Below are positions 2,638 to 49,671 of a stretch of 51,279 bases of DNA, piece by piece (the stretch's first letter is position 1; every line of letters starts with the position of its first letter). The translations under genes were made by a program, and so were the position numbers. This DNA is from Candidatus Pacearchaeota archaeon. GTDB taxonomy: Archaea; Nanobdellota; Nanobdellia; Pacearchaeales; JAPDKA01. The stretch spans positions 1-51,279 of the forward strand of contig JAWAZI010000006.1 of the NCBI GenBank assembly GCA_038817835.1. The letters are read 5' to 3'. Under the pieces are notes generated by a model. That model was given only the letters and a program-made list of their open reading frames with translations, was not told the origin of the DNA and ran no database searches.

Positions 2638-2745
2638 TTATAAATATACTTAATTTTTTTTAATTTTATTTATTTAATTTTTTTAATTACTGCTTATATT
2701 TTTCTTAATTTCTTAATTTTTTAAATCTAAAAAATAATATTTAAT

Positions 2746-30343: not shown

Positions 30344-31514
30344 AATATTTTTTGCTTTAATATTAGGTGTACTAGCAGGAACAATAACAGGAATAATTCC
30401 GGGATTGCATATAAATTTAATTGCTGCTTTAGTTTTAACGATGCCAAAAATAGATATTATTTTTCTATTATGTTTTCTTGTTTCTATGGCAATAACTCAT
30501 ACTTTTATGGATTTTATTCCCTCAATTTTCTTAGGTTTACCAAAAGAAGATAATTTTCTTGCATTATTGCCTGGACATAGATTTCTAATTAAAGGTTATG
30601 GTTATGCTGCTGCTAAATTAACTTTAATAGGCTCTTTTTTTGGATGTATATTGGCTATAATTTTTTCCCCTTTTTATATGAAATTTATTTCTTTTTCCTG
30701 GATATTTTTAAAGAAAACTGTTCCTTTCTTCCTTTTATTTGTATCAATTTTTTTGATATTTAAAGAAAATAAAAAAATAATAGCTTTAATTGTTTTTTTA
30801 CTTTCAGGTATTTTAGGAATTTTAACATTAAACTTTAAATTAATAAGTCAACCTCTTTTGCCATTGTTTTCTGGATTATTTGGTTTACCATTGCTATTTT
30901 TAAGTATAAAAAATAAAATAAAAATAAAAAAACAAGAAATAAAAGAAATAAAAATAAAAAAACATGAATATATAAAATCTCTTTCAGCAGGATTAATAAG
31001 TTCTAGTTTAGTTTCAATTTATCCTTCATTAGGCCCAGGACAAGCTGCAATTATAGGGAGTGAAATGTTTGGAAAATTGAATACAAAATCTTTCTTAATT
31101 TTAGTTGGTTCAATAAATACTATTGTAATGATATTTAGTTTTGTTTCAGCATATGCAATAAAAAAAGGAAGAACTGGAATAGCTGCTACAATATTAAATA
31201 TATTAAGTGAAATTTCTTTAAAAGATTTAATTTTTATACTTATAGTTTCATTAATTGCTTCTTGTTTATGTGTTTTTATATTTATTCTTATTTCAAAATA
31301 TATTGCCAAAAACATAAATAAAATAAATTATTCAATATTATGCTTAATAGGAATTATTTGTATATTAGTTATAAATATATTAGTTTCAGGTGTAGCCAGT
31401 TTAATAGTATTATTTACAGGATTATTTATAGGTTTAATCGCTAATATAAAAGAAATAAGAAAAGTTCATTTAATGGGTTGCTTAGTTATACCGGTTTTGG
31501 GATTCTATTTTTAG
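30336..31514 (+). CDS. TctA-family (DUF112) membrane protein
   Basis: GTITGIIPGLHIN, DFIPSIFLG.P, LLPGH, PLFSGLFG; multiple TM helices. Confidence 0.85.
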   Translation: MFKIFFALILGVLAGTITGIIPGLHINLIAALVLTMPKIDIIFLLCFLVSMAITHTFMDFIPSIFLGLPKEDNFLALLPGHRFLIKGYGYAAAKLTLIGSFFGCILAIIFSPFYMKFISFSWIFLKKTVPFFLLFVSIFLIFKENKKIIALIVFLLSGILGILTLNFKLISQPLLPLFSGLFGLPLLFLSIKNKIKIKKQEIKEIKIKKHEYIKSLSAGLISSSLVSIYPSLGPGQAAIIGSEMFGKLNTKSFLILVGSINTIVMIFSFVSAYAIKKGRTGIAATILNILSEISLKDLIFILIVSLIASCLCVFIFILISKYIAKNINKINYSILCLIGIICILVINILVSGVASLIVLFTGLFIGLIANIKEIRKVHLMGCLVIPVLGFYF

Positions 31515-34500
31515 AACCATTTTTTAAGATTTGTTTGCTTATCTTCTTCTTTACCAAAAATAGTTTCTATATTTATTTTTATTAAATCTAAAGTTTGCTT
31601 TATATAATTTGAAACATTATATTTATTAGCTAAATCTAATGCTGGTTGCAAATATTTTTTTATTGTACCTTCTGCAATTGTAAAAATTATTCTTCCACCG
31701 CATCTCAAACATTTTCCAGATAGAGGGGGTCTTCTATATTTTTCATTACATTGAACACATCTAAATTCTTGGATTGAAAATTTTCTTAAATTTCCTCTAA
31801 TATCTCTAACAAAATGCCTTGTAATAATTAAACTTGCTAAATGAGATTCATCAACTGCTCTTATTTTTTCTCCTAATTCCATTTGTTTTTTTACTTTTTC
31901 TTCCATTGTTGGAATTTTTTTATATGCTGAACATTTATTACCTTTTATCTCGGAACATGGATGTGTAAAGTTTACTAAAAATGCATTATAGCTATCCAAA
32001 AATTTTTTTACTTGTGGTATATCAACTTCTGAAGGATCTTTAAATTGAAGTGTTGCCTCATAAAAAGATCTAGGAAATAAAGAAATATTTTCCATATCAA
32101 AAACCATATCATCAACTTCTTTTTGATTAATTATGATATTAGCTACAATGGGGCAATCTTGAACTACTCCTCTAGTAGATGGAATATAACTAATAGAAAA
32201 ATTTATTAATGCATCTAAAAGTAACATAAATCCCGCTTCATCACCATCACAATCTCTTCTTAATGCTGCATGTAAAAATGGATGTGCTAAAAAAGTTTGA
32301 GTATCACTAAAACCTATTATTCTAGCAACTGTTCCTGCAGCATTATGAGGAGCAATACACAAAATTAAATGACCAATTAAATCTTCTCTATTTTTAACAT
32401 TATAAAATGGTTTGATTTTATAAAATTTAACTAATAAATCATCTATAAAATTAGCTACTTTTACAAAAAACTTATCTGCTCTCTCGTCAAGACTTTCTTT
32501 AGATGCAGGTAAAATTACATCTTGTGGCATTAATGCTAATAATTGATCTTCATTCTCTAAAGGATTACCATATATATCATATTTATATCCTAGCTCTTTT
32601 AACTTTTCTATAGATGTTGATATTTCTCTTGCCTTAAAATGAGTAATTGGCAATTCTGTTGCATCATATCTTATTGTTCCATCTTTATTTACATTTAATC
32701 CATAAATAGCTCTTAATATTCCTTTAACTAAATTTTCAGGAATATGCTCCAAAGAGCTAGTTCCTCTAACACCTTTAATTAATTCTGGAATTTCTTCTTT
32801 CTTAAGATTTAATCTCTTTATCGCTCTATCAAAATAAAATTTAATATCTATTTTCTTCTTTCTATAACTTTTTAATTTTCCATGAATTTCACAAAAGTTT
32901 TTATCATAAATTTTTTTACAAATTTCACAATAATATTTTTTCTCTGTAGGTTTATTACATTTTTCACAAACTGGATAGATTGTTTCATATTTACAATTAC
33001 TACAATAAAAACAACAAAAATCTGCTAAAACAAAACCTTTCTCTAATGCTTCATTAATACTTCTTAATCTTCCACCTTGCTCTGATACTGGAAATAAACA
33101 ATTTGGTTGGCCTTTCATTACTCTTGGTTTAGCTTTTTCTGGTCTTCCCATCCTTGCACCAATGAATGTTCCACATTTATCTCTTATTTCAAATTCTGAA
33201 ACAGAATTTAGAAAATCTAAAACATCTTGTTTATTTATTTCTATATTAAAATTTTTTAATTTCAAATTTAATTCTTCGATATCATCATTTATATTTTCAC
33301 TTTTTATTATCCCTAAATTTAAAAGCAAACTTAGGGCATGTATTTTATCTATTATAATATTATCAGCAAAAACCATGTGCTGCAATCCTATAAGTTCTAA
33401 AGCTCTTTTAGCTTTTGCTATTTCTTCTCTCTTAAATTTTGGATATGGAAGTATAAGCTTAAAATCTTTATTAAAATAAGATTGCTTAACCCAATTATAA
33501 ATTTCTTTAAGTTGCTCTATATCTATTTCCTTCCAGAAAAATATATATTTTGGATATAATGGAAGATTAAATTTTTTACATAAATTTATAGCATCATAAA
33601 AAGATAAATTAAAATAATTATAATCTTTTTCAAGATTTTCTAAAATATTTTTTGCTTTGTTTTTTTCTGATTCATTAGAATTATTTATTATATTTATCAA
33701 TTTTTCTTTTAATTCACTAAACCACCATTCTTCAACATAAGGAGATGGCATTAAAGTATGATTTCTATTAAAAAAATCTCCATAACTAATTAATAAATCC
33801 CCTAAATAAATTATTTCTTTTACTAATTTTTTATATTTTAATGCATCTTCTATATTGTCTATCTTAACTACGCTATCGTCTAGTAATTTTACAATTGGTC
33901 CGTCTATATAATCGCTAACTGCCAAACTTGAAGATTTTCCTGGTCTTTCTGTTCTAAGTTGAGTACCTATAGCCAAAAAATCATCTATAATATATGTTAA
34001 TGCAGGATTTATTGCTGTAGCACTATAACCACTTATTCTTGTTCTTCCATAACGTAATCTAAAACCACCTCTTCTAGATGGATGACTCAATATAGGTCTA
34101 CCCGCTACAATATCTTTTATATAAGTTGCATCTTCTGCTATAATATTTTTTCCTCCAACTTCTTTTTTTAATTTTTTTAGAAATTCCCAATCTTTATAAA
34201 TATCTATTCCTTGTTGCTTTAGTTTTTCTATCTTTTTTATTATCTTTGATGCCTTTAAGCAAATTCCTTCAGCTACAACTAAACAAAATCCACTTCTTAT
34301 TCTATTTGTACTAACTCTATCTAAATCTTTATAGTTACTAACTTCAATTTCTTCTGATGGTTCTCCTTCAATTTGTACAGGAATATTTCTTATAACTACT
34401 GATATTTCATCTTCACTTGGTAAATATTGAAGATTAGTAACCCTTTCATGATAATCATAAATTTCAATTATGCTTCTTTTTATTTCTTCTTCTGTTGCAT

Positions 34501-35032
34501 CATATTTTGAATAACCAAAAAGGTTTCTAAGATAATCTATCATAACTACACAAAGAGATGCTGCTGTTCCTCCTGCAGATCTTATTGGCCCAGCAAAAAA
34601 AGCTGCTATATATTTTTTACCATCTCTTCTTTCTCTTTCTTCCAACTTAATAAATCCTTCTATAGGACTAGATACAATACCTAAAGTTATATATGCAAAC
34701 GCTGTTCTTATTCCTGCCTCCATAGCCTCAATTCTAGAGGAAAATTTACAAAATTTTTCTTCAGCTATTTCTCTTGCTATTTTTAATGCTACTGCTAATT
34801 CAAGATAACCATGTTCTTTCTCTAATTCTATTATTCTTTTTTTAATTAATTCGTTATTTAATTGTGGATAAAGTGATGAAACAAGACCTATTACTCTATC
34901 GTATAAGTTTTTTGTTAATTTTATTTCAACATTTTTAGATGGATCTAGTCCTTTCTCTCTTGCTTTCTTTGCTATTTCATAAGCTAAATTAACTTTCTCT
35001 TCTATATCTTTAAAATATTCGTCGAAATTCAT
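31511..35032 (-). CDS. polC: DNA polymerase D large subunit DP2
   Basis: AGPIRSAGGTA, GGFRLRYGR, IGARMGRPEKAK, catalytic RRDCDGDE, C-terminal Zn finger and PIP box QTNLKKWF; no intein apparent. Confidence 0.97.
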   Translation of the reverse strand: MNFDEYFKDIEEKVNLAYEIAKKAREKGLDPSKNVEIKLTKNLYDRVIGLVSSLYPQLNNELIKKRIIELEKEHGYLELAVALKIAREIAEEKFCKFSSRIEAMEAGIRTAFAYITLGIVSSPIEGFIKLEERERRDGKKYIAAFFAGPIRSAGGTAASLCVVMIDYLRNLFGYSKYDATEEEIKRSIIEIYDYHERVTNLQYLPSEDEISVVIRNIPVQIEGEPSEEIEVSNYKDLDRVSTNRIRSGFCLVVAEGICLKASKIIKKIEKLKQQGIDIYKDWEFLKKLKKEVGGKNIIAEDATYIKDIVAGRPILSHPSRRGGFRLRYGRTRISGYSATAINPALTYIIDDFLAIGTQLRTERPGKSSSLAVSDYIDGPIVKLLDDSVVKIDNIEDALKYKKLVKEIIYLGDLLISYGDFFNRNHTLMPSPYVEEWWFSELKEKLINIINNSNESEKNKAKNILENLEKDYNYFNLSFYDAINLCKKFNLPLYPKYIFFWKEIDIEQLKEIYNWVKQSYFNKDFKLILPYPKFKREEIAKAKRALELIGLQHMVFADNIIIDKIHALSLLLNLGIIKSENINDDIEELNLKLKNFNIEINKQDVLDFLNSVSEFEIRDKCGTFIGARMGRPEKAKPRVMKGQPNCLFPVSEQGGRLRSINEALEKGFVLADFCCFYCSNCKYETIYPVCEKCNKPTEKKYYCEICKKIYDKNFCEIHGKLKSYRKKKIDIKFYFDRAIKRLNLKKEEIPELIKGVRGTSSLEHIPENLVKGILRAIYGLNVNKDGTIRYDATELPITHFKAREISTSIEKLKELGYKYDIYGNPLENEDQLLALMPQDVILPASKESLDERADKFFVKVANFIDDLLVKFYKIKPFYNVKNREDLIGHLILCIAPHNAAGTVARIIGFSDTQTFLAHPFLHAALRRDCDGDEAGFMLLLDALINFSISYIPSTRGVVQDCPIVANIIINQKEVDDMVFDMENISLFPRSFYEATLQFKDPSEVDIPQVKKFLDSYNAFLVNFTHPCSEIKGNKCSAYKKIPTMEEKVKKQMELGEKIRAVDESHLASLIITRHFVRDIRGNLRKFSIQEFRCVQCNEKYRRPPLSGKCLRCGGRIIFTIAEGTIKKYLQPALDLANKYNVSNYIKQTLDLIKINIETIFGKEEDKQTNLKKWF

Positions 35033-35033
35033 C

Positions 35034-36515
35034 TTAATTAAATTCGAGAATTGCTATTTTTTTAGTTTTAGTATTAAATATAGGGACTCTACCTGGATCT
35101 GGCATATGGCCAAATTTCTCTTGAAATGCTGTTCTCGCTTGAAAACATGAAGTAGAAATTAATAAAATATTTTCATATTTTTTTATGCCTGTTTTATGAA
35201 CATGTGAAGTAACAAATATATCTGGAATTTTTTTTATTATTAAAAAATCTTCCTCACAGGGAAAATATAATGTAGATCCATGTGTAGGTGCTAAATGTCT
35301 TTTCTCTAATAAAAATTCAAGCAAAATTTCTGGATTCTCATATGGTTTCTTTTCTTTTAATGAATAAACATTATTAGCATAATAATCTAAACTATAACCA
35401 TGATAAAGTAATATTTGATAACCATAAACTAAAAAATATGAAGGATTTGGTAAAAATATTGCATTTTCTAACTTTTGAAGAGGAGATGCATAATTTGTGA
35501 AAATTTGTGGTTCAACAAGCCTACAAGCATCATGATTACCAGGAATAAAAACTAATTTCACATTTTCTCTTATTTCACTAAATATTTCTGCTGCAGCTTT
35601 ATATTGTTCTTTTATATCTTTAATAGATAACTCTTCTTCTTGACCAGGATAAATACCAACACCATCAACAATATCACCATTAACAAATATGTGGGTAATT
35701 TTTTTAGCCTTTTCATCATTTGAATTTACCCAATTTATAAATTTTCTAAAATTATTTTCTAAAAATTTCTCACTACCAATATGGATATCTGAAATGAAAA
35801 CAAGATTTTTATCTATATTTACTTTTTTATCATTTTGATTAATAGCTTTAGGAAAAATTATATCAGAAGCAAATATAAGATCTTTATTACCAAAACCTTT
35901 AACACCAATAACTTCATCTTCAACAACATATAAAGCTTTTTTATATGCTTTACTATTTTTATTAATTAAAACTTTTATATTTGCTCTGTTATCTTCTAAA
36001 GTTAGGATTATATTATTATTTTTGGTTATTTCTTTACTAAAAACAATACCTATAACTGAAACGTTTTGATTTTTCTTTGGTAATTTATCAATTGAAATAA
36101 GATTTTCTAATTCATTTCTATATTTTAATATCTCTTTAAAATAATTAAATCTGTTTCTAAAATATGAAATAAAATCATTAACTTCTATTTTTTTAGGCAT
36201 TAAAGTTTTATTTATTTCAAAATTAGTTTCAATACTTTCTGTAATTTCAATATCTTCTTCTATATTTAGAACTTTTTCTCTAAAATAAAAAATATCTGAT
36301 TCTTCAAATTTTTTTAAATTATTATATTTTTCCAGTAGCTTTAATAATTCTTTTTTATTTTTTTTAAAGAAATTTAAAGAAATAAGTTTTGGTGCTTTCA
36401 TATCAATTAACAAACTTAAAATAAGGTTAGGATTTATATCTTGGATAAAATTTATTAAATCTGGTTGGATAAGAAAATTATTCTTTATAAAAAAATTAGA
36501 TAAATTTGCAACCAT
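35034..36515 (-). CDS. polB: DNA polymerase D small subunit DP1 (proofreading exonuclease)
   Basis: OB fold; SDIHIGS, GDIVDGVGIYPGQ, PGNHD, YHG, RHLAPTHG, HVH. Confidence 0.95.
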   Translation of the reverse strand: MVANLSNFFIKNNFLIQPDLINFIQDINPNLILSLLIDMKAPKLISLNFFKKNKKELLKLLEKYNNLKKFEESDIFYFREKVLNIEEDIEITESIETNFEINKTLMPKKIEVNDFISYFRNRFNYFKEILKYRNELENLISIDKLPKKNQNVSVIGIVFSKEITKNNNIILTLEDNRANIKVLINKNSKAYKKALYVVEDEVIGVKGFGNKDLIFASDIIFPKAINQNDKKVNIDKNLVFISDIHIGSEKFLENNFRKFINWVNSNDEKAKKITHIFVNGDIVDGVGIYPGQEEELSIKDIKEQYKAAAEIFSEIRENVKLVFIPGNHDACRLVEPQIFTNYASPLQKLENAIFLPNPSYFLVYGYQILLYHGYSLDYYANNVYSLKEKKPYENPEILLEFLLEKRHLAPTHGSTLYFPCEEDFLIIKKIPDIFVTSHVHKTGIKKYENILLISTSCFQARTAFQEKFGHMPDPGRVPIFNTKTKKIAILEFN

Positions 36516-36516
36516 A

Positions 36517-37710
36517 TTAATATTCTATAATTTCTTTTATTTTTGATATCAAATTTGGAGCTAAATTAATTTTTATCTCTCTTGTTCTTCCATATCTGCC
36601 TTTATTTACAATTGTTGCATTTATCAAGCCAAGCATATCTAATTCTGCAATTATATCGCTTACTCTTCTCTGTGTTAATGGTTCTAATTTCAATGAAGAA
36701 GTTAGCTCTAGATATTTATTATAAACATCTCCTGTAAATATTTTGCTTTCTTTTGTTTTTTCTAATAAATTTATTATAGATAACAATATCAACTGATGAT
36801 GTCTTGGTTGAGTTTCAACCAAATCTAATATTTTATCTCTTTCTATTTTTTCTATAGCTTTATCAACATATTCTAAAGTTAATTTAGATTTTCCATCTCT
36901 TTCTGCAAGTTCTCCAGCTATCCTTAATAAATCTAAAGCCCTTCTTGCATCACCATGCTCCTTTGCTGCAATTGCTGCTATTTTTTCTATTATGGTGTCA
37001 TTAACAGCATTCTTCTTAAAAGCAAGTCTTGCTCTATCTCTCAATATATCTTGAAGTTGAAAAGCATTATATGGTGGAAAAACTAATTCCTCTTCACTAA
37101 GGCTACTCCTAACTCTAGGATCTAAATAATCAAGAAATGTTAAATCATTACTAATTCCTATTAATGAAATTTTTGAATTTGATAAAAAAGAATTTATTCT
37201 TGTGAAATTATATAAAAAATTATCAGATATTTTTTTAACTATTTCGTCTATTTCATCAAATATTATAATAACTAATAACTTTGATTCTTCTACTAAATCT
37301 ATAAATTTTTTATAAACAACATCAGTAGGTAAACCTGTTGCAGCTATAGAATGACCAAATTGATTTATTAATTCTGTAAGAATTCTATATTCTGTATCTG
37401 CAATTTTTTTTAATTTACAATTTATATAAATAGCTTTCAATGGTATATTAAGTTCTTGGGCTTTCTTTAATAATTGATTTATAACATATTTTACAACTAA
37501 TGTTTTCCCAGTTCCTGTTTTTCCATAAATAAAAAGATTACTAGGTTTTTCAAGCCTTAGAGCACATGCTAAAATTTTTGCTGTTTGTTTTATTTCATTT
37601 TCTCTATGAAATATATTCTCTGGAGTATAATCAATTTGTAGAACTTGTTTATTTTTAAATATTGTTTGTTTTATTATATTATCAAATAGTTTATCTAGAT
37701 TAGATGGCAT
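36517..37710 (-). CDS. cdc6: Orc1/Cdc6 replication initiator
   Basis: Walker A GKTGTGKT, YINC, Walker B FDEID, GDARRALDLLR, C-terminal wHTH with GRYGRT. Confidence 0.97.
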   Translation of the reverse strand: MPSNLDKLFDNIIKQTIFKNKQVLQIDYTPENIFHRENEIKQTAKILACALRLEKPSNLFIYGKTGTGKTLVVKYVINQLLKKAQELNIPLKAIYINCKLKKIADTEYRILTELINQFGHSIAATGLPTDVVYKKFIDLVEESKLLVIIIFDEIDEIVKKISDNFLYNFTRINSFLSNSKISLIGISNDLTFLDYLDPRVRSSLSEEELVFPPYNAFQLQDILRDRARLAFKKNAVNDTIIEKIAAIAAKEHGDARRALDLLRIAGELAERDGKSKLTLEYVDKAIEKIERDKILDLVETQPRHHQLILLSIINLLEKTKESKIFTGDVYNKYLELTSSLKLEPLTQRRVSDIIAELDMLGLINATIVNKGRYGRTREIKINLAPNLISKIKEIIEY

Positions 37711-38149
37711 AAAAAAACTTGTAAAATTATTTTAAAAATATTATTGAAATGAAAAATACATATTTTTACCTATATTTCTTTTGGAGATATCTATAAATTT
37801 TATCGAGGAAAAAAATTAAAAATAAAATTTTCCACAAGAAAATAACAACAGAGGTTATTTTCATTAGCTAACTAAAATAAACTCAAAAATGATCTACAGT
37901 TACACCTAATTTTCTCATGGAAAGATCTCTTTAATATGTTGTTTTATTTTTAATAAAGTTAAAAAAATAAAAGTTAAAAAATATTATAAAAAAATATATA
38001 TAATATAGTAAAGAAAAATTTTTAAAATATTTTTTAAAATTCAAAATAAAAATTTCAAATTAATATATATTTCCATATGAAATAATAGGGTGAGAATGTA
38101 TAAATAAAGTTATAGTAATGTTTATAAATAAAATTAATATTAGTTTAGC
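37711..38149. other. Probable chromosomal replication origin (oriC) with four ORB-like boxes and an AT-rich unwinding element
   Basis: 439-bp intergenic next to cdc6; TCCA-N3-GAAA..GG boxes at 37767-37787(-), 37829-37855(+), 37902-37923(-), 38070-38091(+); very AT-rich tract about 37930-38068. Confidence 0.8.
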
Positions 38150-39065: not shown

Positions 39066-39147
39066 CGCCTGGGGTAGGATTCGAACCTACACGGCAAAAG
39101 CCACCTGCTTTCGAGGCAGGCGCGTCTACCAGTTCCGCCACCCAGGC
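39066..39147 (-). tRNA. tRNA-Ser(CGA)
   Basis: Minus strand GCCTGGG...CCCAGGC-G; anticodon stem CCTGC/GCAGG with loop CT-CGA-AA; long variable arm; GTTCGAATC; no intron, CCA not encoded. Confidence 0.95.
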
Positions 39148-39875: not shown

Positions 39876-39924
39876 TAATTATTTAAACATTAAAATTTTT
39901 TAATTTTGTTTTTTATATTAATTA

Positions 39925-41193: not shown

Positions 41194-41196
41194 AAA

Positions 41197-41898
41197 ATGG
41201 CAAAAAAAATAAAAATTGCTTTTTCTCCTGAAATAAAAAAAGAGGAAAATAAAGAATATTTATTCTTTTTAACATCTTTTATTTTAGCAATTATTATTTT
41301 TTTATTTGGATTATTATTAGGAAATTATATTGCCTCATCTAAGATTTCTCAATTTAAAGAAAGTGAAGAAAAATTTTTAATTTATTTGATAGGATATGAT
41401 ATATCACAATCAATTTTAAATGAAGATATATGTAACATAAACCTAGATAAATTTTTTGAAGAAAAAGCTAAACTTGGAAATATGCTTACAAATTTAGAGG
41501 AAAGATTTGGAAAAGAAAATAAAGAAATTATTAATAAAAAAGATATATACCAATTAATAGAAATAAAAATGTTAGAATATTTTGAAAAAGCTTTTAATAA
41601 TTGTAACAGAACTTTTAATGTTATTTTATTTTTTTATACAAATAAAAAAAATGACTATAAAGGAAGTGTTGATGCATCAGAAGATCAAGGTAAAATTTTA
41701 GATCAAGTAGTTTACGAACATAATGAAAAAAAGAAAGGAAATCCTGTTTATGTTTTTTCTTTTGATATTAATTCAAATAATCCAGCAATAATTACATTAA
41801 TTTTAAAATATAATGTAACGAGTGCACCAACTTTAATAATTAATGGAAAGAAATATAATTATCTTGTAAAATCCGAAATTGAGGATATTTTATTATAA
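41197..41898 (+). CDS. Membrane-anchored protein with thioredoxin-like C-terminal fold, no CxxC
   Basis: TM helix; ILFFY...VFSFD...KYNVTSAPTLIING. Confidence 0.6.
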   Translation: MAKKIKIAFSPEIKKEENKEYLFFLTSFILAIIIFLFGLLLGNYIASSKISQFKESEEKFLIYLIGYDISQSILNEDICNINLDKFFEEKAKLGNMLTNLEERFGKENKEIINKKDIYQLIEIKMLEYFEKAFNNCNRTFNVILFFYTNKKNDYKGSVDASEDQGKILDQVVYEHNEKKKGNPVYVFSFDINSNNPAIITLILKYNVTSAPTLIINGKKYNYLVKSEIEDILL

Positions 41899-43344
41899 GA
41901 AATTAAATATTTTACATATTTTTCTTAATTTTAATTTAAGCATTAATGCATCACAACCACTAAAATCTTTGGGGAATTCTGATAAAGATTTTAATTCTTC
42001 AATATATGTTTTATTTATTTTATCATCAATTTTACAATTTTCATAATTTCTTATCCAAATATAATTTTCATTATTCTCAATTATATAATCTTTTAATTTT
42101 TCTATTTCATCTTTATTTTTTTTGAATACTTCATAATTTTTAAATAAAATAATATTATATCCTTCATTTACAGCAGAGTTTATTTTATAACTTGAACCAA
42201 ATACAGGGGGAATTGCTTTTTTCCCATACCAATTAAAATATACCCATAAATCACTAACTATTGTACAATTATCAACTTTATTTATTATTTCTTTTATTAT
42301 TTTTTCTTCTTTAACTATATGTGTTGTAAATTTATCTAAAATAATAAAACTTGATAAAGGAGATATAATTAAAAGTAAAATTACAATAATAATTTTTATC
42401 AAATTACTTTTTTTTATTTTTTCAATAAAATTAAAACCATGAACAGAAAGATAAAAAATTAGTAAAGATAAATTAAAAAGAAATCTTTCTTGTTTTAAAT
42501 AAGTAATCATATAAATAAATAAAGTTAAAAAAGTAATCAAAATCAAAGTTATAATTAATTTTTTTTCATTTTTTAATATTTTTGATATGTTTAAAATTCC
42601 TAAAATCAAGAATGGAAAATTTATATTTATAGTTAAAACTAGATGAAAAAATAATAAATTTAAATCAAATTTTGTTGGAGCTTGTTCTAAAGAATTTAAA
42701 GCATAATAATCACCTATGCTTGTTAGAGCATGGCCAGTGAATATATAATTTATTAATAACCAAGGTAAAAAAACAAAAAAAATAATAATTAAAGCTATTA
42801 ATATTTTTTTAATATTTTTAGATAAGAGGATTGTCGGTAATAAAATTATATTCGAGTATCTTGTTAACATTGATAATCCTAGAAAAATAAAACTACCAGC
42901 AGAAAATGCAAAAACAACAAAAAGAATAATAAAAGATAAAGAAATGAGCTCAGTACCAATATATAATCCTCTAAGCAATATATATGGATTTATTGCAAAT
43001 AAATAAAAACTCCAAGAATTTTTAATATTTTTTAAAAATTTATCATGAAATAATTTTAAAGAAAAAAAATAAAGTATAGTTGAAAATATTATAAAACTAT
43101 ATATTGCAAATTTTCTACTAAAAATTCTAAATATCATAAAAATGAATGGAACTAACGGTGGCCTTAACCATTCAAAATAATCACTTTTATTTAAAAAGTA
43201 CTCCCCATTCATAACATAAACAGAAAAATCCCAAGAGAAAATTCTAGTTTGAAATAAGAAAAAAGTTAAAGCTATAAAAAAAGAAATTAAAAAAATAAAC
43301 AATTCTACTTTATCTTTGAATAATTTTTTAATTTTCATTTCCAC
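41893..43344 (-). CDS. GT-C fold membrane glycosyltransferase (PMT/ArnT-like)
   Basis: WDFSVY, RPPLVP, TE, LTRY, PWL, QERFL; about 10 TM helices. Confidence 0.8.
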   Translation of the reverse strand: MEMKIKKLFKDKVELFIFLISFFIALTFFLFQTRIFSWDFSVYVMNGEYFLNKSDYFEWLRPPLVPFIFMIFRIFSRKFAIYSFIIFSTILYFFSLKLFHDKFLKNIKNSWSFYLFAINPYILLRGLYIGTELISLSFIILFVVFAFSAGSFIFLGLSMLTRYSNIILLPTILLSKNIKKILIALIIIFFVFLPWLLINYIFTGHALTSIGDYYALNSLEQAPTKFDLNLLFFHLVLTININFPFLILGILNISKILKNEKKLIITLILITFLTLFIYMITYLKQERFLFNLSLLIFYLSVHGFNFIEKIKKSNLIKIIIVILLLIISPLSSFIILDKFTTHIVKEEKIIKEIINKVDNCTIVSDLWVYFNWYGKKAIPPVFGSSYKINSAVNEGYNIILFKNYEVFKKNKDEIEKLKDYIIENNENYIWIRNYENCKIDDKINKTYIEELKSLSEFPKDFSGCDALMLKLKLRKICKIFNFL

Positions 43345-44375
43345 ACCCCAAATAAACTTGTTAAATATGTGAATATAGTTGCAATAAAAATACCAATTAG
43401 ATTAGCTATTAAATAATATATTCCTAAACTAACTAAAAGCCATAATAAAGAGAAATTAATTATCAATGCCATTATTCTTGAAATATTAAATTTTAAACAT
43501 CTAATAAAAAAATTTCCTTTTCTTTCTTTATTAAATGTCCATATATCATTAAGAAAAAAATTCCATATAATTGAGCTTTCTATAGCAATCAAACTTGAAA
43601 AAAGATAAAATAATCCAGCATTTGTTAAAAGCCAGAGCAACCCTTCATTTACTATTATACCAGAAATACCAACAATACAAAATTTTACAAATCTGTGATG
43701 TTCTTTTTTATATTTTGCAAGTTTTAATAAATGTTTAAAACTAATAAAAGCTTGTTTTAAATTAAATTTACTCTTTCCACTTTTTCTACTCATAAAGTTG
43801 AATGGTACTTCAGAAACTTTATTATATTTTGCTTTTACTAAAATTTCTAGAAGTATTTTAAAGCCAATAGGTTCAAGCTTTATATTTTTTAAAATTTTTT
43901 TTCTAAAAGCAAAAAATCCAGATGAAGGATCTTTAATATTTTTAGTTGAAGGAATAATTAAATGAGTTAATAATATATATATTCTTGATACAAATCTTTT
44001 CAAAAAACTTTGATAGGTTTTTGCTCCTTTTATATATCTTGAAGCAATAACTATATCATTTTCTTTTAATTCTTTTAAGATTTTTGGTATAAACTCTGGT
44101 GGATGCTCCAAATCTGCATCCATTACTAAAATAATATCTCCCTTTGCATAATTTATAGCAATTTTTACTGCATTACTCAAATCAGCATTTCCTGTTTGTA
44201 TAATTTTTATAGGAAATTTTTTAGCAAAATTTTTAGCAATATTAACAGTATTATCTTTACTATTACTATCTGCAATTATTATTTCATAATTCCTTAATTT
44301 TAATTTTAAAATTTTTTTTATGATATTACCTATATTCCCTTCTTCATTTTTTGTTGGAATTATTATTGATAGCAT
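43335..44375 (-). CDS. Polyprenol-phosphate glycosyltransferase (DPM1-like GT2) fused to a GtrA flippase-like domain
   Basis: IIPTKNE, MDADLEHPP, IASRY, DPSSGFF, R..GKSK; C-terminal KFCIVG..NFFLND.WTF. Confidence 0.9.
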   Translation of the reverse strand: MLSIIIPTKNEEGNIGNIIKKILKLKLRNYEIIIADSNSKDNTVNIAKNFAKKFPIKIIQTGNADLSNAVKIAINYAKGDIILVMDADLEHPPEFIPKILKELKENDIVIASRYIKGAKTYQSFLKRFVSRIYILLTHLIIPSTKNIKDPSSGFFAFRKKILKNIKLEPIGFKILLEILVKAKYNKVSEVPFNFMSRKSGKSKFNLKQAFISFKHLLKLAKYKKEHHRFVKFCIVGISGIIVNEGLLWLLTNAGLFYLFSSLIAIESSIIWNFFLNDIWTFNKERKGNFFIRCLKFNISRIMALIINFSLLWLLVSLGIYYLIANLIGIFIATIFTYLTSLFGVWK

Positions 44376-44415
44376 ATTAATAAAAATTTTAAAAATTTAA
44401 AATATTTTAATTTGT

Positions 44416-44778
44416 ATGGTTTATGAATTAGCAGAATTAATTTTTAGAGACGAATTTTATAAATATAAAAATACACTTGAAAAATTAGAAGATAAAGCAA
44501 AGAAAATAAATTTAGATATACCAACTTTTTATTTTTATGGATTAGAAGGGATGAAATATCTTATAAAAAATAAATCAACATTGAGGAAAATTGGGGAAAA
44601 ACTAATTTATTTAGCAAAAGAAGCAATAGATAATAAATTAGATTTGAGAGTATTATTTATTAATTTGGGAAACTGTAAAGATAAAATTAAAAATAATTAT
44701 GATTTAGAAAAATTTGGAAAAATATGGATAAATTCATTAAAAGAAAGAAATATATTTAATTATGCAAGAAATTTATGA
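44416..44778 (+). CDS. Hypothetical protein
   Basis: 120-aa ORF overlapping the trxB start. Confidence 0.6.
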   Translation: MVYELAELIFRDEFYKYKNTLEKLEDKAKKINLDIPTFYFYGLEGMKYLIKNKSTLRKIGEKLIYLAKEAIDNKLDLRVLFINLGNCKDKIKNNYDLEKFGKIWINSLKERNIFNYARNL

Positions 44779-45709
44779 TATTGCAATTGTAGGTGGAGGA
44801 ATTGCAGGACTTACTGCAGCTATTTATTCTAGAAGAAAAAATCTTAATACAATTATAATAACTCCCGAAATAGGTGGTCAAACAAATTTAGCTATAAATA
44901 TAGAAAATTATCCTGGATTTAAAAAAATAAAAGGAAATGAATTAATAAAAAATATTCTTGAAAAAGTTATAGAGTTAAATACTACATTCATTTTTTCAGA
45001 AGTTATTAAAATAGAAAAAAAGAAAAAAATATTTCTAATTTATTTAAATAATGGAAATATAATTAAAGCGAGAGCAATAATCCTTGCATTTGGTAAAACT
45101 CCTAGAAAACTAGGGATAGGAGAAGAGAAATTTATAGGAAAAGGAATTAGTACTTGTGTTATTTGTGATGCCTCTTTATATAAGGATAAAACTGTTGCTG
45201 TTGTTGGTGGTGGTAATAGTGCAGTTGATGCAGCTTTAGAATTAGCAAATATATCGAAGAAAGTTTATTTAATTCATAGAAGAGAAAATTTTAGAGCAGA
45301 TGAAATAAGTATAAAAAAATTGAATGAAAAACCAAATATAGAAATTTTATTTAATAGTGTTATTAAAGAAATAAATCATGAATCAAAAAAAGAAATTGTT
45401 GAAAATATATTAGTAGAAAATTTAAAAACTGGAGAAAAAAAGAAAATTAATGTTGATGGAATTTTTTTGGAGATTGGTTTTGATATGAAAAGTGATTGGC
45501 TTAAAGATTTTGTAAAATTAGATAAAAATGGCCAAGTTATTGTTGATAAATTATGTCAAACATCTAGAAAAGGAGTTTTTGCTGCAGGTGATTGTACAGA
45601 TATGCCATTTAAGCAAGCAATAATTTCTGCTGGTCAGGGAGCTATTGCAGCTTTACAAGCTTATAAATATCTAACAAAAGGAAAAGAAAAATTAATAGAT
45701 TGGAGTTAA
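44762..45709 (+). CDS. trxB: Thioredoxin reductase
   Basis: GGGIAGLTAA, CVICD, GGGNSA, HRR, GVFAAGD. Confidence 0.92.
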   Translation: MQEIYDIAIVGGGIAGLTAAIYSRRKNLNTIIITPEIGGQTNLAINIENYPGFKKIKGNELIKNILEKVIELNTTFIFSEVIKIEKKKKIFLIYLNNGNIIKARAIILAFGKTPRKLGIGEEKFIGKGISTCVICDASLYKDKTVAVVGGGNSAVDAALELANISKKVYLIHRRENFRADEISIKKLNEKPNIEILFNSVIKEINHESKKEIVENILVENLKTGEKKKINVDGIFLEIGFDMKSDWLKDFVKLDKNGQVIVDKLCQTSRKGVFAAGDCTDMPFKQAIISAGQGAIAALQAYKYLTKGKEKLIDWS

Positions 45710-48354
45710 TGCTTTTCTTTTATTTTTTCTAAAATTTTTTCATGCATTCTTCTTAGAAATTCTATTCTATCTTCAATTTTTAATAAATCAAGATATCCTT
45801 GAGCAAAAATATTAAAAGCAAATGGGCTTGGCATTTCTGTATTTATTTTTTTAATTTCAATTTTTTTCTCATTAATCCATGATAATACATTTTTTGCATT
45901 TTCTATATCCATAACATCTTCCAAAACTTCGCGTTTAGTTTCTTTTATTACAGGAAAATTTGGATCTATTTCCTTTATGCTTTTATATAATATATCAGCT
46001 TGCATTTGTAATTTATTTACACTTTTTGTTTTTTCCATATAACTTTTTAAAATTAAGAAACTTCTTACAGCATTATGTCTAAATCTTCTTTTAAAAATTT
46101 CTGTTTTTTCTATTGCTTCATTTAATATTATCTCTAATTTTTCATAATTTTTAATTAATAATGCCAAAGCCTGCTCAACTTGAATTTTATCATAACTAGC
46201 TATATAAAAACCATTATCATTTATACTTATTTCAACATCTTTATGATTGATTTTTGCTATTAAAAATGCTAAAGCCCTACTTAAAGCATCATTTACACGT
46301 CTTCCGTATAAACTATGAAAAATCCAATATTTTTTTCCATCACTAGCTTTATAAAATTCAATTAAAAGTTTTTTTTCATGAGGAATTTCTGCATATTTAA
46401 ACTGTTCATAGAAATAATCATATATAGCTTCTGCAATATTTCTTTTGCAATGACAATAATCTTTAATCCATTCTATTATTTCATCTTTTTTATATTTTTT
46501 CAATTTTTCTTCGAGAAGAAATCTAAAATGATTTATTGCTAAAGCAAGATCAAAGTTTAATGGTAACATTTCAGAAAACCAGCTTGGTATTGTTGGTGGT
46601 TGTTGTACAGATGCATTAACATATGCATTCATTCCTCTAGAATATAAAAACATATATTTTTGTCCTCCTAAAACAAATACATCACCAGGTTTTAATCTTT
46701 CTAGGAAAGCTTCATCTATGACTCCTATTTTTTCATTTTTTCTTTCTTTTGGCATAGCAATAATAACATTTACATAACTTTCTTCTGGAATTGTTCCAAT
46801 ATTAGTCATATACATCATTCTAGCAAGTTTAGATCTTTTTCCAAATTCTTTTGTTTTTTCATCATACCAAATTTTTGCATAAACACCTTTTTCTTCAATT
46901 TTAAAATATTTTCCACTTAAATAAGCAATAACACTAAGTAAATCCTCTCTTTTTAAACTATTATAACAGTAACTTTTTCTTATAAGTTTATAAAAATCCT
47001 CGATATTCCATACTCTATTTATAGCCTCTCCATAAACATGTTGACATAAAACATCTAAACAATTTTTTGGTATTTGTACTCTATCTATTTCTTTTTCTAT
47101 TATTTTTTTTGCCATTATTGTACACTCAACTAAATCATCTCTATCAAGAATAACAAATCTACCTTTAGCTATAGCATGAAGTTTATGTCCAGCTCTGCCA
47201 ATTCTTTGAGTTGCTCTTGCAATACTTTTTGGACTTCCAAGTAATATAACTAAATCAAGATATCCAATATCTATACCTAACTCAAGACTAGTACTACTAA
47301 CTACTGCTTTAAGTTTTCCTTCTCTTAATCTTTGCTCTATATTAAAACGTAATTTTCTACTTAAGCTTGAATGATGTGCTCCAATAGCATCTATTGTTTC
47401 ATATCTCCTAGGAAACATTTCTTTTAAATGTTGTATTACTCTTTCAGTTCCACTTCTTGTATTAGTAAATATTAATGTTGTTCTATGTTGTTGTATTAGA
47501 TTATCTATTAAATTATATAGATTTTTACTTTGAATTCCAGCATCCTCAAAAAATTTACTTGCTATTAATACTTCAATATCAATTGGTTTTGCAAATCTTA
47601 CATCAGCTATTAAGCAATTTCTTAATTCATATTTTTTTTCTTTTTCATTAAATTCATAGCCTACTAAAAATTTTGCAACTTCTTCTAGAGGAGCAATAGT
47701 TGCACTCAATCCAATTCTTATGGGTTTTATTTTTGATATATATGTTAATCTTTCTAAACTTAAGCTAAGATGTACCCCTCTTTTATTATTTGCTAAAGCA
47801 TGAATTTCATCAACAATTATAAATTCAACAGCATTCAAATTTTCTATAAATTTTTTACTACTTAATATTATTGCTAAACTTTCTGGTGTTGTTACAAGTA
47901 TATGTGGTGGTTTTTTTAATTGTTTTGCTTTTTCATTAGTAGGAGTATCGCTTGTTCTTAAACCTACTCTAATTTCTTTTAATTTTATATTTTTCTTTTT
48001 TGCAATTTCTTTTATCTCATTTAGTGGTATTTGTAGATTTACATATATATCATTATTTAATGCTCTTAATGGGGAAACATAAACACAATAAATTTTATCT
48101 TCAAGCTTATTATTTTCTGCAAGAATAACAAGATAATTTATTATAGGCAAAAAAGCAGTTAAAGTTTTTGTTCCACCAGTTGGAGCTGTTAATAATATAT
48201 TTTTTCTTTCCCATATAGGTATTATCCCATAAAGTTGTGGTAAGCTAAAATTTTCAAATTTTGAAAAAAACCATTCTTTTACTATAGGATGGAGGATATT
48301 AATTATTTCTTCTTTGCTATATGGTTTATCTATAAATTTAATTTTTTCATTCAT
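45706..48354 (-). CDS. lhr: Lhr-family SF2 helicase
   Basis: SPLRALNND, TTPESL, DEIH, GLSAT, SLELGIDIG, QRIGRAGH; variant Walker A APTGGTKT. Confidence 0.93.
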   Translation of the reverse strand: MNEKIKFIDKPYSKEEIINILHPIVKEWFFSKFENFSLPQLYGIIPIWERKNILLTAPTGGTKTLTAFLPIINYLVILAENNKLEDKIYCVYVSPLRALNNDIYVNLQIPLNEIKEIAKKKNIKLKEIRVGLRTSDTPTNEKAKQLKKPPHILVTTPESLAIILSSKKFIENLNAVEFIIVDEIHALANNKRGVHLSLSLERLTYISKIKPIRIGLSATIAPLEEVAKFLVGYEFNEKEKKYELRNCLIADVRFAKPIDIEVLIASKFFEDAGIQSKNLYNLIDNLIQQHRTTLIFTNTRSGTERVIQHLKEMFPRRYETIDAIGAHHSSLSRKLRFNIEQRLREGKLKAVVSSTSLELGIDIGYLDLVILLGSPKSIARATQRIGRAGHKLHAIAKGRFVILDRDDLVECTIMAKKIIEKEIDRVQIPKNCLDVLCQHVYGEAINRVWNIEDFYKLIRKSYCYNSLKREDLLSVIAYLSGKYFKIEEKGVYAKIWYDEKTKEFGKRSKLARMMYMTNIGTIPEESYVNVIIAMPKERKNEKIGVIDEAFLERLKPGDVFVLGGQKYMFLYSRGMNAYVNASVQQPPTIPSWFSEMLPLNFDLALAINHFRFLLEEKLKKYKKDEIIEWIKDYCHCKRNIAEAIYDYFYEQFKYAEIPHEKKLLIEFYKASDGKKYWIFHSLYGRRVNDALSRALAFLIAKINHKDVEISINDNGFYIASYDKIQVEQALALLIKNYEKLEIILNEAIEKTEIFKRRFRHNAVRSFLILKSYMEKTKSVNKLQMQADILYKSIKEIDPNFPVIKETKREVLEDVMDIENAKNVLSWINEKKIEIKKINTEMPSPFAFNIFAQGYLDLLKIEDRIEFLRRMHEKILEKIKEKH

Positions 48355-48413
48355 TTTATTTTTTATCTTTTTAATATAAAAAATTTTTTTAAACTAATTA
48401 CTAAATATTTTTA

Positions 48414-48680
48414 ATGTCAAAAATAAGTGAGGAAAAAATAAAAAAAATTAAAGAAGAAATTTTAGCATTACTTTTTAATAAGTTTCCATACTCTTTATTT
48501 ACAGCACAGATAGCTAGAGAACTAGCTAGAGATGAAGAATTTATTAAAAAAATATTGTTTGATTTGGAGAAAGTTGGATTGGTGAGAAGAATAAAAGAAA
48601 AAAATGGTAAAATATTATCAAGAAAAATACTCTGGCAATTAACTGAAAAAGCATATTTTGCTTATAAAAATCTTAAATAA
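48414..48680 (+). CDS. Small winged-helix protein
   Basis: TAQIARELARDEEFIKKILFDLEKVGLV HTH followed by a wing. Confidence 0.8.
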   Translation: MSKISEEKIKKIKEEILALLFNKFPYSLFTAQIARELARDEEFIKKILFDLEKVGLVRRIKEKNGKILSRKILWQLTEKAYFAYKNLK

Positions 48681-48705
48681 AAAAGTTTTTAAAATTATTA
48701 TTGTT

Positions 48706-49356
48706 ATGATTGAAATGGAAGCTATTAAAAAATCATTTGAGAAAGTAAAACAAGATATTAATGATTTAGCAAATTATATTCTAGAATTAAAGAAAGATAT
48801 AGAAAAAATAAATAAGGAAATTGAAGAAATTAAACGAACTTTTTTTCTCCAACACATTTCCAACACATTTCCAACAGATAAAATAGAAAATTCAAAATTT
48901 TTAGGAGATAAGCCTTATTTCTCAAGTTCCACAGGAAATAGGGGGGTTCCAACACTCCTACGTCACTCCTACGACACTACTACGTCACAAGAAAATAAAG
49001 ATTTTGAGAGAAGAGAAATTATAAATATTGAAATTGATAAAGCAATTTCTAAATATAAAAAAGAATTAATTAATAGATTTAAAACACTTACTCGTAAAGA
49101 ATTTGAAATTTTTTCATTAATCTATAGCCTTCAAGAAAGCATTGATGTTACATATAAAATATTAGCAGAGAAAACAGGATTAGCTCCAAGTTCTGTTAGG
49201 GATTTAGTAAATAGACTTATAATTAAAGGAATACCTATAGAGAAAAGAAAAAATATTAATAGAGAGATTATATTAAAAATTCCTAATGAATTAAAAAAAA
49301 TTTCAAATTTAGAAGCATTAGAGAAAGTTGTAAATTATTATGGATTTAATCGATAA
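48706..49356 (+). CDS. Coiled-coil + linker + C-terminal winged-helix protein (start probably ATG 48706 or 48715)
   Basis: IKKSFEKVKQDINDL coiled coil; LTRKEFEIFSLIY...TYKILAEKTGLAPSSVRDLVNRLIIKGIPIEK wHTH; TTTTTAAAA TATA-like box at about 48686. Confidence 0.8.
   Translation: MIEMEAIKKSFEKVKQDINDLANYILELKKDIEKINKEIEEIKRTFFLQHISNTFPTDKIENSKFLGDKPYFSSSTGNRGVPTLLRHSYDTTTSQENKDFERREIINIEIDKAISKYKKELINRFKTLTRKEFEIFSLIYSLQESIDVTYKILAEKTGLAPSSVRDLVNRLIIKGIPIEKRKNINREIILKIPNELKKISNLEALEKVVNYYGFNR
48847..48990 (+). repeat. Seven 11-bp iteron-like direct repeats in two tandem clusters (48847-48879 x3, 48947-48990 x4)
   Basis: CTCCAACACAT TTCCAACACAT TTCCAACAGAT ... TTCCAACACTC CTACGTCACTC CTACGACACTA CTACGTCACAA. 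Confidence 0.85.
48926..48947 (+). promoter_or_regulatory. Intragenic ORB-like box with G-string
   Basis: GTTCCACAGGAAATAGGGGGGT matches the archaeal ORB pattern TTCCA-N3-GAAA..GGGG. Confidence 0.7.
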
Positions 49357-49671
49357 TTAATCTTTTTTATTTTTTACAACTTTCATAAAATTTCAAATCA
49401 ATCTCTTAATATCTATTTATATATTTATTTGTAGTAATAACAGTTTCTTTGATTTGTTTTGGAAAATATCTAACTTATGTTGTTTTACTTTAATGTATAT
49501 TAATACCTTTTTTAACAATGTGTCTTATTTTTTTAATTTTTTTGAAATAATCCCTATAATTTATATTTTCACTAAGTAAAATTTTTTTTCTTAATAGGTA
49601 TCCAAGATATAGAAAAATTTTTAAAACTATAAAAAATAAAAATTAAAAATAAATTTTATAATACTTTAAAA

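Follow-up and report, generated by a model that had tools for sequence, protein, structure and literature searches.

An intragenic origin recognition box with lineage-specific repeats in a winged-helix protein gene of Nanobdellota archaea: a candidate auxiliary initiator site

Introduction

What does a site of the type recognized by the archaeal replication initiator Orc1/Cdc6 do inside a protein-coding gene, kilobases away from the probable origin? This question is raised by a stretch of 51,279 nucleotides of a Candidatus Pacearchaeota archaeon (assembly GCA_038817835.1, contig JAWAZI010000006.1, positions 1 to 51,279; the whole stretch is referred to below as the window), in which a sequence resembling an origin recognition box (ORB), accompanied by short tandem repeats, lies within the coding sequence (CDS) of a winged-helix protein named R216 here. 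An initial annotation, made from the letters and the open reading frames (ORFs) of this DNA, had considered four roles for the element: a second replication origin, a site for titration of the initiator, a partition site or an autoregulatory roadblock. The classical archaeal origin consists of inverted ORBs that flank an AT-rich region beside the initiator gene (according to PMC4010727 and PMC12141716). As described below, the in-gene box is kept by selection on its nucleotides and shares its motif with the boxes of the cdc6-adjacent origin, and a role as an auxiliary or regulatory initiator site is proposed for it.

Results

The in-gene box shares the motif of the origin boxes

The presence of an ORB-like box inside the CDS is real: the sequence GTTCCACAGGAAATAGGGGGGTT lies on the plus strand, in the part of the R216 gene that codes for a linker (coordinates in Table 1), and is translated as S-T-G-N-R-G-V. 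Its mini-ORB core, TTCCACAGGAAAT (48927-48939), contains the conserved TTCC and GAA and is identical at 10 of 13 positions to the example TTCCAGTGGAACT, quoted together with the "TTCC" and "GAA" core motifs in PMC1904270. One side of the core carries a run of six G (48941-48946), an element described as the G-string of ORBs (PMC1868953). The bare core TCCANNGGAAA taken alone is not significant, with one match in the window vs 0.45 expected and at least one match in 38 of 100 shuffles. In the complete assembly (572,182 bp, 24% G+C) it has four matches, and just one of them, the window box, is joined to a G-run.

Related loci were collected from named public DPANN assemblies, in which 147 pattern matches were found, 109 were confirmed and the best 80 loci were kept; counts across these related genomes and loci, here and below, are not independent. 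A 23-nt position weight matrix (PWM) was built from the in-gene boxes only and applied to both strands of 81 loci with a threshold of 14. The matrix returned 80 matches on the coding strand of R216 and three on its other strand, followed by 57 in the intergenic spacer between cdc6 and a PRC-barrel gene (35 on the cdc6 side and 22 on the PRC side, pointing apart). The gene of the large subunit of DNA polymerase D (DP2) contained one match, that of the small subunit (DP1) none in the 81 loci, and 14 were located elsewhere, including seven that lie just upstream of the PRC-barrel gene where a contig begins; no match was obtained in 395 kb of shuffled sequence scanned on both strands. As the matrix was built on the in-gene boxes, their higher scores over the oriC boxes follow by construction. 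The cdc6-PRC spacers hold a 60-bp segment with a median of 98% AT, and in the relatives a divergent ORB pair is placed around this stretch beside orc1/cdc6. Since the in-gene matrix otherwise finds almost only these inverted boxes flanking the AT-rich stretch, the in-gene box is, judged by its motif, a genuine ORB of this lineage, as the initial annotation had supposed, with the motif that also marks the cdc6-adjacent origin.

The box is also a rare element. With the PWM score lowered to at least 10, the source assembly (G000) showed three matches, namely the in-gene box with the top score (37.7), one on contig C4 (14.5) and one in oriC at position 38070 (12.6). In G112, a single contig of 736,802 bp, the three PWM matches all fall within 25 kb around cdc6 and R216. 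A strict 21-nt pattern, TCCANNGGAAAYNNNGGGGTT, was detected in 85 of the 401 genomes of a phylum sample, nearly always once, compared to 0 of 401 for the reversed control. Within the window's order 27 of 30 genomes contained the pattern, which lay inside the R216 match and on the same strand in all 26 own-order genomes that were cross-checked. The own-order and 401-genome tallies include six unpublished genomes (G396, G360, G243, G244, G333, and G322), which contributed to these tallies only.

Selection acts on the nucleotides of the box

The peptide encoded by the box is the most striking feature of the R216 family. In an alignment of 118 proteins S75 and N78 never vary, and G77, G80, and V81 hardly do; the two former are the sole invariant residues in the N-terminal two-thirds of the family, and their invariance persists at about 31% protein identity. 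The strict peptide motif was present in 153 of 163 R216-family proteins, with variants in most of the others. When codons were mapped onto the protein alignment for 72 full-length genes (DPANN, Nanobdellota), these residues proved to be accompanied by a nearly fixed choice of synonymous codons: TCC for S75 in 72/72 genes (the gene-wide share of TCC being 14%), GGA for G77 in 67/67, AAT for N78 in 65/71, GGG for G80 in 71/72, GTT for V81 in 64/65, ACA for T83 in 70/70, GAC for the Asp that comes after T83 in 59/59 and CAG for Gln in 60/66. Equally conserved residues of the winged helix use three to six codons each (S163 four, R165 five, L171 six). Codon entropy relative to gene-wide usage had a median of 0.067 in the 11 columns of box and array vs 0.94 in 62 other conserved columns (Mann-Whitney p = 7e-7), a contrast that kinship cannot explain because both groups of columns hold the same sequences.

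The constraint extends to residues that are themselves variable, as the codon before the Ser ends in T in 69 of 71 loci (mostly in TT) and the codon after it starts with A in 71 of 71. Over 71 loci the DNA consensus is TAGGTATTTCCACAGGAAATGAAGGGGTTCCAACAGACAG, its core being invariant in the 71 in-gene boxes and GGGG present in 70-71 of them; the natural variants of the box, AGAAA and CGAAA, match oriC boxes. These observations evidence strong purifying selection on the nucleotides of the box and not on the peptide, and the conserved S-x-G-N-x-G-V is a by-product of the DNA motif. The initial annotation had proposed the comparison of synonymous codons among homologs as a test of its idea, which the 72 genes passed decisively.

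The repeats around the box are lineage-specific DNA elements

In the window the box is flanked on both sides by repeats (Table 1). The three upstream CCAACA boxes are spaced by 11 bp and read in three frames (LQHISNTFPTD); downstream, a CCAACA box abuts the G-run and is followed by an array (48953-48988) for which Tandem Repeats Finder (TRF) reported a period of 11, 3.3 copies and 88% matches. A second repeat-finding method returned the same two arrays. The count of three upstream and four downstream units given at the outset holds approximately, and only when the CCAACAC immediately behind the box is included, TRF giving 2.6 and 3.3 copies. Within the whole assembly the downstream 11-mer, as well as its 9-mer core, is confined to the window array, and the upstream 11-mer, CCAACACATTT, has three copies, two in the window array and an extra one on contig C4. 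The C4 copy abuts the sole other ORB-like PWM match of the source assembly (~29273-29297, minus strand), a combination that could be due to chance or be a degenerate second module.

The unit that follows the G-run changes with the lineage: (CAGA)7-9 in most loci, then CAAA or CAGACAAA, 11-mers in the close relatives of the window, and ATCAACGATC in another family; 11-mers of two kinds occur. In the window the period-11 array replaces the (CAGA)n array of most relatives. The 11-bp period, which had been emphasized as one helical turn, is therefore a property of the window and its close relatives and not a general rule, since most relatives have a period of 4 or 8. The linker peptides are in effect short DNA repeats translated in all three frames; PTHFQHISNTF corresponds to three copies of one 11-mer, LLRHSYVTPTS to three copies of another, and the TDRQ peptide repeats to (ACAG)n. 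The CCAACAC box occurs in three reading frames among the window's relatives and in one frame elsewhere.

Boxes of the form YCRACA (CCAACA or TCGACA), together with CAGACAGA, are concentrated between -200 and +150 of the ORB, on the coding strand only. CCAACA was counted 253 times near the box (27 kb) and, in the remaining 830 kb, 337 times on the same strand and 185 times on the other; the corresponding figures for CAGACAGA were 333 near the box and 11 in the rest. The oriC spacers (32 kb) contained just three CCAACA boxes. Relative to the start of the ORB, YCRACA boxes recur at fixed offsets, at -91 in 45 of 78 loci, -70 in 30, -61 in 41, -49 in 59, and +23 in 72. In the 18 loci with TCGACA at +23 the boxes further upstream comprise 47 TCGACA and 8 CCAACA, and in the 54 loci with CCAACA at this offset they comprise 131 CCAACA and 43 TCGACA; the box type is thus concerted within a locus, with the loci being related and the counts not independent.

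Several genomes carry variants of this arrangement. A second, tandem box lies 43 bp upstream in L014, L030, and G218, and in L045 and G329 the second box is inverted, so that two boxes converge on a (CAGA)n array. G235 and G260 carry two full modules (box plus ATCAACGATC-type repeats), of which one is part of the linker and the other immediately precedes the gene, in its non-coding 5' flank. The module exists independently of coding sequence yet stays attached to the R216 gene, and the flanking repeats are, as anticipated, lineage-specific DNA elements.

The window stretch is present as contigs in nine sequencing runs, none of them listed as RNA, and four hot-spring metagenome runs among them (X1, X4, X5, and X7) were compared over 48300-49500. 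The contigs of X1, X4, and X7 end or start at 48850-48879, in the upstream 11-mer array, and one X5 contig spans the complete interval with six substitutions; short pieces of contigs of other organisms match 48917-48954 only. The breaks of these contigs (Logan assemblies) at the upstream array may reflect a branch of the assembly graph caused by co-occurring relatives or by copy-number variants. At one related locus, L146 (G334:C3, ~790-900), R216 is split by a frameshift right after a short repeat array; this sole case could represent an assembly error, a pseudogene or an "off" variant.

R216, of a poorly annotated family, and its neighbor S88 are predicted winged-helix proteins

R216 is composed of a long N-terminal helix (residues 2-48), a disordered linker (49-95), a further helix (96-126) and a MarR-like winged helix. 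The AlphaFold2 model has a mean predicted local distance difference test (pLDDT) score of 84.7, falling below 55 in the linker, and this low-confidence segment coincides exactly with the region coded by the boxes and repeats; the box-bearing segment, which had been taken for a linker, is thus predicted to be disordered. A Foldseek search of the PDB with the model retrieved almost exclusively MarR-family chains among the top 50 matches, which align with its residues 96-213, the best being 1s3j (E 4.8e-4, TM-score 0.45 by target), and the model displays the long dimerisation helix and the winged helix that characterize the MarR-type fold. At the sequence level R216 stays under the Pfam gathering score for MarR (PF01047, 12.8 bits, cut-off 24.6), and its best Pfam match, HTH_24, is also below threshold (18.2, cut-off 21.9). 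Directly upstream of R216 there is, as had been pointed out, a second gene for a small winged-helix protein, S88, which adjoins R216 in 73 of 80 related loci.

The size of the R216 family depended on the search, with 19 matches in a word-indexed search and 582 representatives at E<=1e-3 in an exhaustive one. In the protein atlas its members bear automatic names, either "hypothetical" or helix-turn-helix clusters of Nanobdellota only. Mean column identity is 71% for Orc1 vs 23% for R216, Orc1 being well conserved like the box and R216 poorly conserved like the repeats; the recognition helix of the R216 family is almost invariant, and the repeat types follow phylogeny. Distant homologs from other orders are short forms of 170-207 amino acids without the long linker, and none of the 20 short-form loci examined had a box (PWM score of at least 8). 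In two of five genomes (G182 and G159) the short-form gene and cdc6 are on one contig, where they lie far apart. As the short forms lack both the box and the long linker, the module can be considered an elaboration of one subfamily.

Some members deviate from this pattern. The short form of G104 has two boxes just after its stop codon. In L135 (G056:C20) SISNNGD followed by five HSLT repeats with a 12-bp period replaces box and array, with no PWM match of at least 8; this intermediate form is possibly a decayed module. A paralogous gene coding for a coiled coil and a winged helix was found downstream of R216 in L141 (G329, 2531-3256), L145 (G218, 1897-2499), L138 (143-811) and L139 (1-456), with E values of 2.6e-6 to 9e-11 against the family hidden Markov model. 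It is convergent with R216 in L141 and L145 and on the same strand in L138 and L139; it carries no box, and in the window no such gene occupies that position.

An insertion separates the module from the probable origin in the window

The features of the window are compiled in Table 1. The orc1/cdc6 gene is the sole copy in the assembly (a single tblastn match). The order DP2-DP1-cdc6, oriC and then PRC-barrel, E125, S88, and R216 was conserved in 53 of 80 loci, the four last genes forming a conserved origin-proximal cluster. The median distance from the in-gene box is 1609 bp to the PRC-side ORB and 1890 bp to the cdc6-side ORB. In the window, by contrast, the box is 10.9 kb from the cdc6-adjacent intergenic region, with about 9 kb (39126-48354) inserted between the origin cluster and S88-R216. 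The separation of 11 kb noted by the initial annotation is hence correct as a distance but derived, the ancestral one being about 1.6-1.9 kb.

Table 1. Coordinates of the features discussed, given as positions of the window.
Feature	Position	Strand	Basis or remark
Genes of the large (DP2) and small (DP1) subunits of DNA polymerase D, downstream of cdc6	31511..36515	-	Pfam; synteny in 44 and 47 of 80 loci
orc1/cdc6	36517..37710	-	Pfam Cdc6_C 1e-29, Cdc6_lid 2.2e-24
Probable oriC	37711..38149	.	Sequence, PWM, layout as in relatives
Weak ORB in oriC	~37901-37923	-	Sequence
AT-rich stretch in oriC	~37930-38068		
ORB in oriC	38070-38092	+	PWM 12.6
PRC-barrel gene	38150-38407	+	Pfam PRC 1.2e-10; synteny in 68/80 loci
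E125 gene (125 amino acids, no Pfam family)	38409-38786	+	Synteny in 59/80 loci
Metallophosphoesterase gene	39126-39875	-	Within insertion
Lhr-type helicase gene	45706-48354	-	Within insertion
S88 gene (88-amino-acid small winged-helix protein)	48414..48680	+	Pfam HTH_69 E 3.2e-4, below curated cut-off
R216 gene (216 amino acids)	48706..49356	+	ORF; name R216 used here
Upstream array, three CCAACA boxes (48849, 48860, 48871)	48848..48876	+	TRF period 11, 2.6 copies, 100% matches
ORB by motif (mini-ORB dyad TTCCA-CA-GGAAA plus G-run)	48926..48948	+	Sequence GTTCCACAGGAAATAGGGGGGTT
Downstream CCAACA box abutting the G-run, then period-11 array of unit CACTCCTACGT	48949..48988	+	TRF

The Lhr-type helicase gene also adjoins S88 in seven of 80 relatives (L001-L003, L014, L019, L029, and L056). 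The gene order is broken with the box still in the gene in the window and in L001, L002, L014, L019, L043, L055, L069, L075, and G112, the latter having cdc6 inverted and 16 kb away from R216. The box therefore travels with the S88-R216 pair in rearrangements away from oriC. GC skew in the window tracks gene orientation and the cumulative skew of G112 falls monotonically, so that neither of them places an origin.

Elsewhere in the phylum, clusters of two to three strong ORBs in the same orientation were seen in L142 (G221:C12, 1873-2073), L143 (G382, 1713-1832) and L144 (G389, 1885-1935). All three belong to other families; those of L142 and L143 have no match to any window protein alongside, and the three clusters are probably origins with a different layout. 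Downstream of R216 the window contains two leucine-rich-repeat genes (49672-50823 and 51072-51278) with near-identical N-termini, the first of which has about nine very regular internal repeats.

Discussion

A proposed role in the control of the initiator

Based on the comparison of these loci, it can be proposed that the module is an auxiliary or regulatory initiator site and not a start site, a reading to which we assign an even chance of being correct. The linker-coding DNA contains a composite cis-element with a central ORB, a direct-repeat array on the G-run side and phased YCRACA boxes upstream. The single Orc1/Cdc6 of the genome would sit on the box, and the fast-evolving local winged-helix proteins, R216 as a MarR-like dimer and/or S88, would occupy the lineage-specific repeats. 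The resulting complex would not fire replication; it could couple S88-R216 expression to initiator occupancy, as a block within the gene or immediately ahead of it, and/or retain or modulate Orc1 in the vicinity of the origin. A regulatory role is favored because the second module of G235 and G260 is promoter-proximal, and because precedents exist in the intragenic dp1 ORB cluster of Pyrococcus and in the ORB cluster that represses oriC2 in Haloarcula hispanica, both discussed below.

Several points weigh against this proposal. MarR-type dimers usually bind palindromes, not direct repeats, and a purely regulatory element need not sit inside a coding region. The binding of the ORB by Orc1 is predicted from the identity of its motif with the origin boxes and from the literature on other archaea, and we likewise infer both the recognition of the repeats by R216 or S88 and the regulatory role. 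A protein-protein prediction for Orc1 and R216 from alignments gave no answer (score 0.00) and is not evidence either way. The concerted box types could stem from gene conversion or shared ancestry instead of a shared binder. Moreover, the converging pairs of L045 and G329 and the tandem boxes of L014, L030, and G218 indicate that the module can resemble an origin more closely than a simple operator does.

A wider hypothesis, which we find somewhat improbable, holds that S88, R216, and the module constitute a self-contained initiator-control locus of DPANN archaea, in which a dedicated winged-helix factor bound to lineage-specific iterons beside a high-affinity Orc1 site either fires as a conditional second origin or holds and switches Orc1. 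By analogy with the bacterial loci datA and DARS, the holding or switching variant would be their archaeal counterpart, coded inside the gene of its own co-factor.

Alternative explanations

A second self-contained replication origin comparable to the lambda ori in gene O, at which R216 would confer specificity and Orc1 would load MCM, would account for the presence of a strong ORB next to iteron-like direct repeats where the gene of a DNA-binding protein codes for a linker, for the integrity of the module when it is separated from oriC and for the two in-gene boxes (inverted or tandem) of some genomes. It is nonetheless unlikely, because the module has no AT-rich unwinding element and usually no inverted partner box, and it is the weakest of the four roles initially envisaged. 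Over 53 loci the richest 60 bp had a median AT content of 0.83 near the box, 0.98 in oriC and 0.82 in the CDS control. In the window the richest 60-bp segment within 300 bp of the box reached 0.90, vs 0.97 in oriC and 0.85 in the cdc6-CDS control, and the A/T-rich spacer once noted between the repeat clusters is thus nothing special. An inverted partner is present in only three of the 81 loci (78, the window included, have none); in Sulfolobus, the loss of either inverted ORB abolishes origin activity (as stated in PMC12141716). The existing inverted pairs converge on the repeat array, whereas oriC pairs point apart. Furthermore, the fold of R216 is MarR-like, unlike a known initiator, and a search of viral contigs yielded no relatives of R216. 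A centromere-like or origin-tethering site, where one or more winged-helix proteins coat the array beside the Orc1 site in the manner of parS in parB, appears quite unlikely as well. Plasmid centromeres typically contain arrays of 4-bp boxes and 11-bp iterons, and parS lies inside the parB gene; likewise, the short direct-repeat arrays studied here, with periods of 4, 8, and 11 bp, are found a single time per genome and close to the origin, in a gene whose product is a dimeric DNA-binding protein with a long coiled coil. However, this is an argument by analogy only and leaves the need for an ORB unexplained, and no partner ATPase is evident among the conserved neighbors, with no search having been aimed at one.

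The repeats could also make R216 a phase-variable gene, in which the slippage of repeat units with lengths not divisible by three would turn production of the full-length protein on or off. Tetranucleotide arrays of 7-9 units and 11-bp units inside a CDS would suit such a mechanism, as would the frameshift directly after the array in the G334 gene and the interruption of assemblies at the arrays, either by N gaps (L071 and L034) or by the contig ends in three of the four runs compared. Even so we regard it as very unlikely, given that 76 of the 81 loci are in frame across the array (the other five being cut by contig ends or Ns), that one frameshift was found among about 27 own-order genes and that the contigs of the four runs list no indels, although contigs drop rare variants; slippage also leaves the fixed ORB and the phased upstream boxes unexplained. 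The chance that the conserved entity is instead the peptide S-x-G-N-x-G-V or an mRNA hairpin, with a coincidental likeness to an ORB, seems close to negligible. The near-invariance of the five peptide residues in 118 proteins and the potential of TTTCC/GGAAA to form a 5-bp hairpin speak for it. Against it, synonymous sites are frozen only at box and array, the nucleotides of neighboring, non-conserved residues are retained, the motif is also present on both strands of the non-coding DNA at origins and the peptide segment is predicted to be disordered. With respect to the hairpin, the variants AGAAA and CGAAA would weaken it but match oriC boxes, and no Rfam family reached threshold over 48000-49800 (best E-value 0.39).

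Comparison with known systems

In phage lambda ori lies inside gene O, the O protein is the initiator and binds the repeats, and an AT-rich region follows. The R216 gene resembles this system in having direct repeats in the part of a DNA-binding-protein gene that codes for an inter-domain linker; it differs in that the central site would be that of the host Orc1, in lacking an AT-rich element and in coding for a MarR-like protein.

The closest archaeal precedent is the cluster of ORBs and mini-ORBs in dp1 of Pyrococcus, to which Cdc6/Orc1 binds both in vivo and in vitro, no initiation being reported there (Matsunaga et al., 2007, PMC1904270). Like the R216 box, the dp1 cluster of Thermococcales places initiator boxes in a protein-coding gene a few kb from oriC and is, according to that source, conserved across an order. 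In the case described here, by contrast, the host is the gene of a winged-helix regulator on the other side of oriC, with no PWM matches in DP1, there is usually one strong box plus tandem repeats that imprints an invariant peptide on the family, and Orc1 binding is predicted. In Haloarcula hispanica a downstream ORB cluster negatively regulates oriC2 (Wu et al., 2014, as cited in PMC4010727), and ORBs outside a core origin thus serve as a control element and not as a start site, similarly to the role proposed for the R216 box. The H. hispanica element is intergenic, directly beside its origin and includes several ORBs, and neither an associated winged-helix gene nor a repeat array is described for it; its role is reported, while that of the R216 box is deduced.

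Accessory proteins at archaeal origins have been described in Sulfolobus, where the sequence-specific protein UBP acts at the ucm motif beside the Orc1 boxes; the possible existence of analogous factors in other lineages is raised as a question by the authors (Dhanaraju et al., 2025, PMC12141716). The ucm motif lies in the unwinding element between inverted ORBs and UBP binds hundreds of sites (PMC12141716), whereas the repeats of the R216 module occur once per genome and outside oriC, as the scarcity of CCAACA in the oriC spacers evidences. Sulfolobus oriC3, for its part, is reported to have no ORB and to be defined by WhiP alone (PMC4010727, PMC12141716). WhiP is a winged-helix protein coded next to the element that it serves, as is predicted for R216; no likeness of R216 to Cdt1/WhiP was detected with Pfam or Foldseek.

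A full-text search for origin recognition box and DPANN found no account of ORBs in DPANN archaea, and a 2026 preprint on Woesearchaeota, the replication origin and Orc1 leaves ORB unmentioned in its available text. ORBs as such, and an intragenic ORB cluster, were already known. What is new is the host gene, which belongs to an uncharacterised family with a coiled coil and a MarR-like domain and whose partner is a small winged-helix protein; the combination, maintained over deep divergence, of a single very strong ORB with phased boxes and an array resembling a microsatellite; its breadth over many families of Nanobdellota; and the mark that the site has left on the protein, whose most conserved motif stems from it.

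Concluding remarks

Replication control in the DPANN/Nanobdellota archaea is essentially unstudied, and the locus described here offers a handle on it in the form of a 23-bp site that occurs once in each genome and is the predicted best site for Orc1, and of an uncharacterised winged-helix pair tied to this box, for which the lineage-specific repeats predict matching specificities. The little understood intragenic ORB cluster of Thermococcales is extended to a second archaeal lineage, with the addition of a protein partner. A caution for annotation also emerges, as the conservation of S75 and N78 is predicted to be dictated by a DNA-binding site and not by protein function. If the hypothesis of an initiator-control locus were true, neither an initiator-regulating locus nor an ORB-iteron hybrid would have been described in archaea before, and the locus would also clearly exemplify a cis-element from which the best-conserved "motif" of a protein family has arisen.

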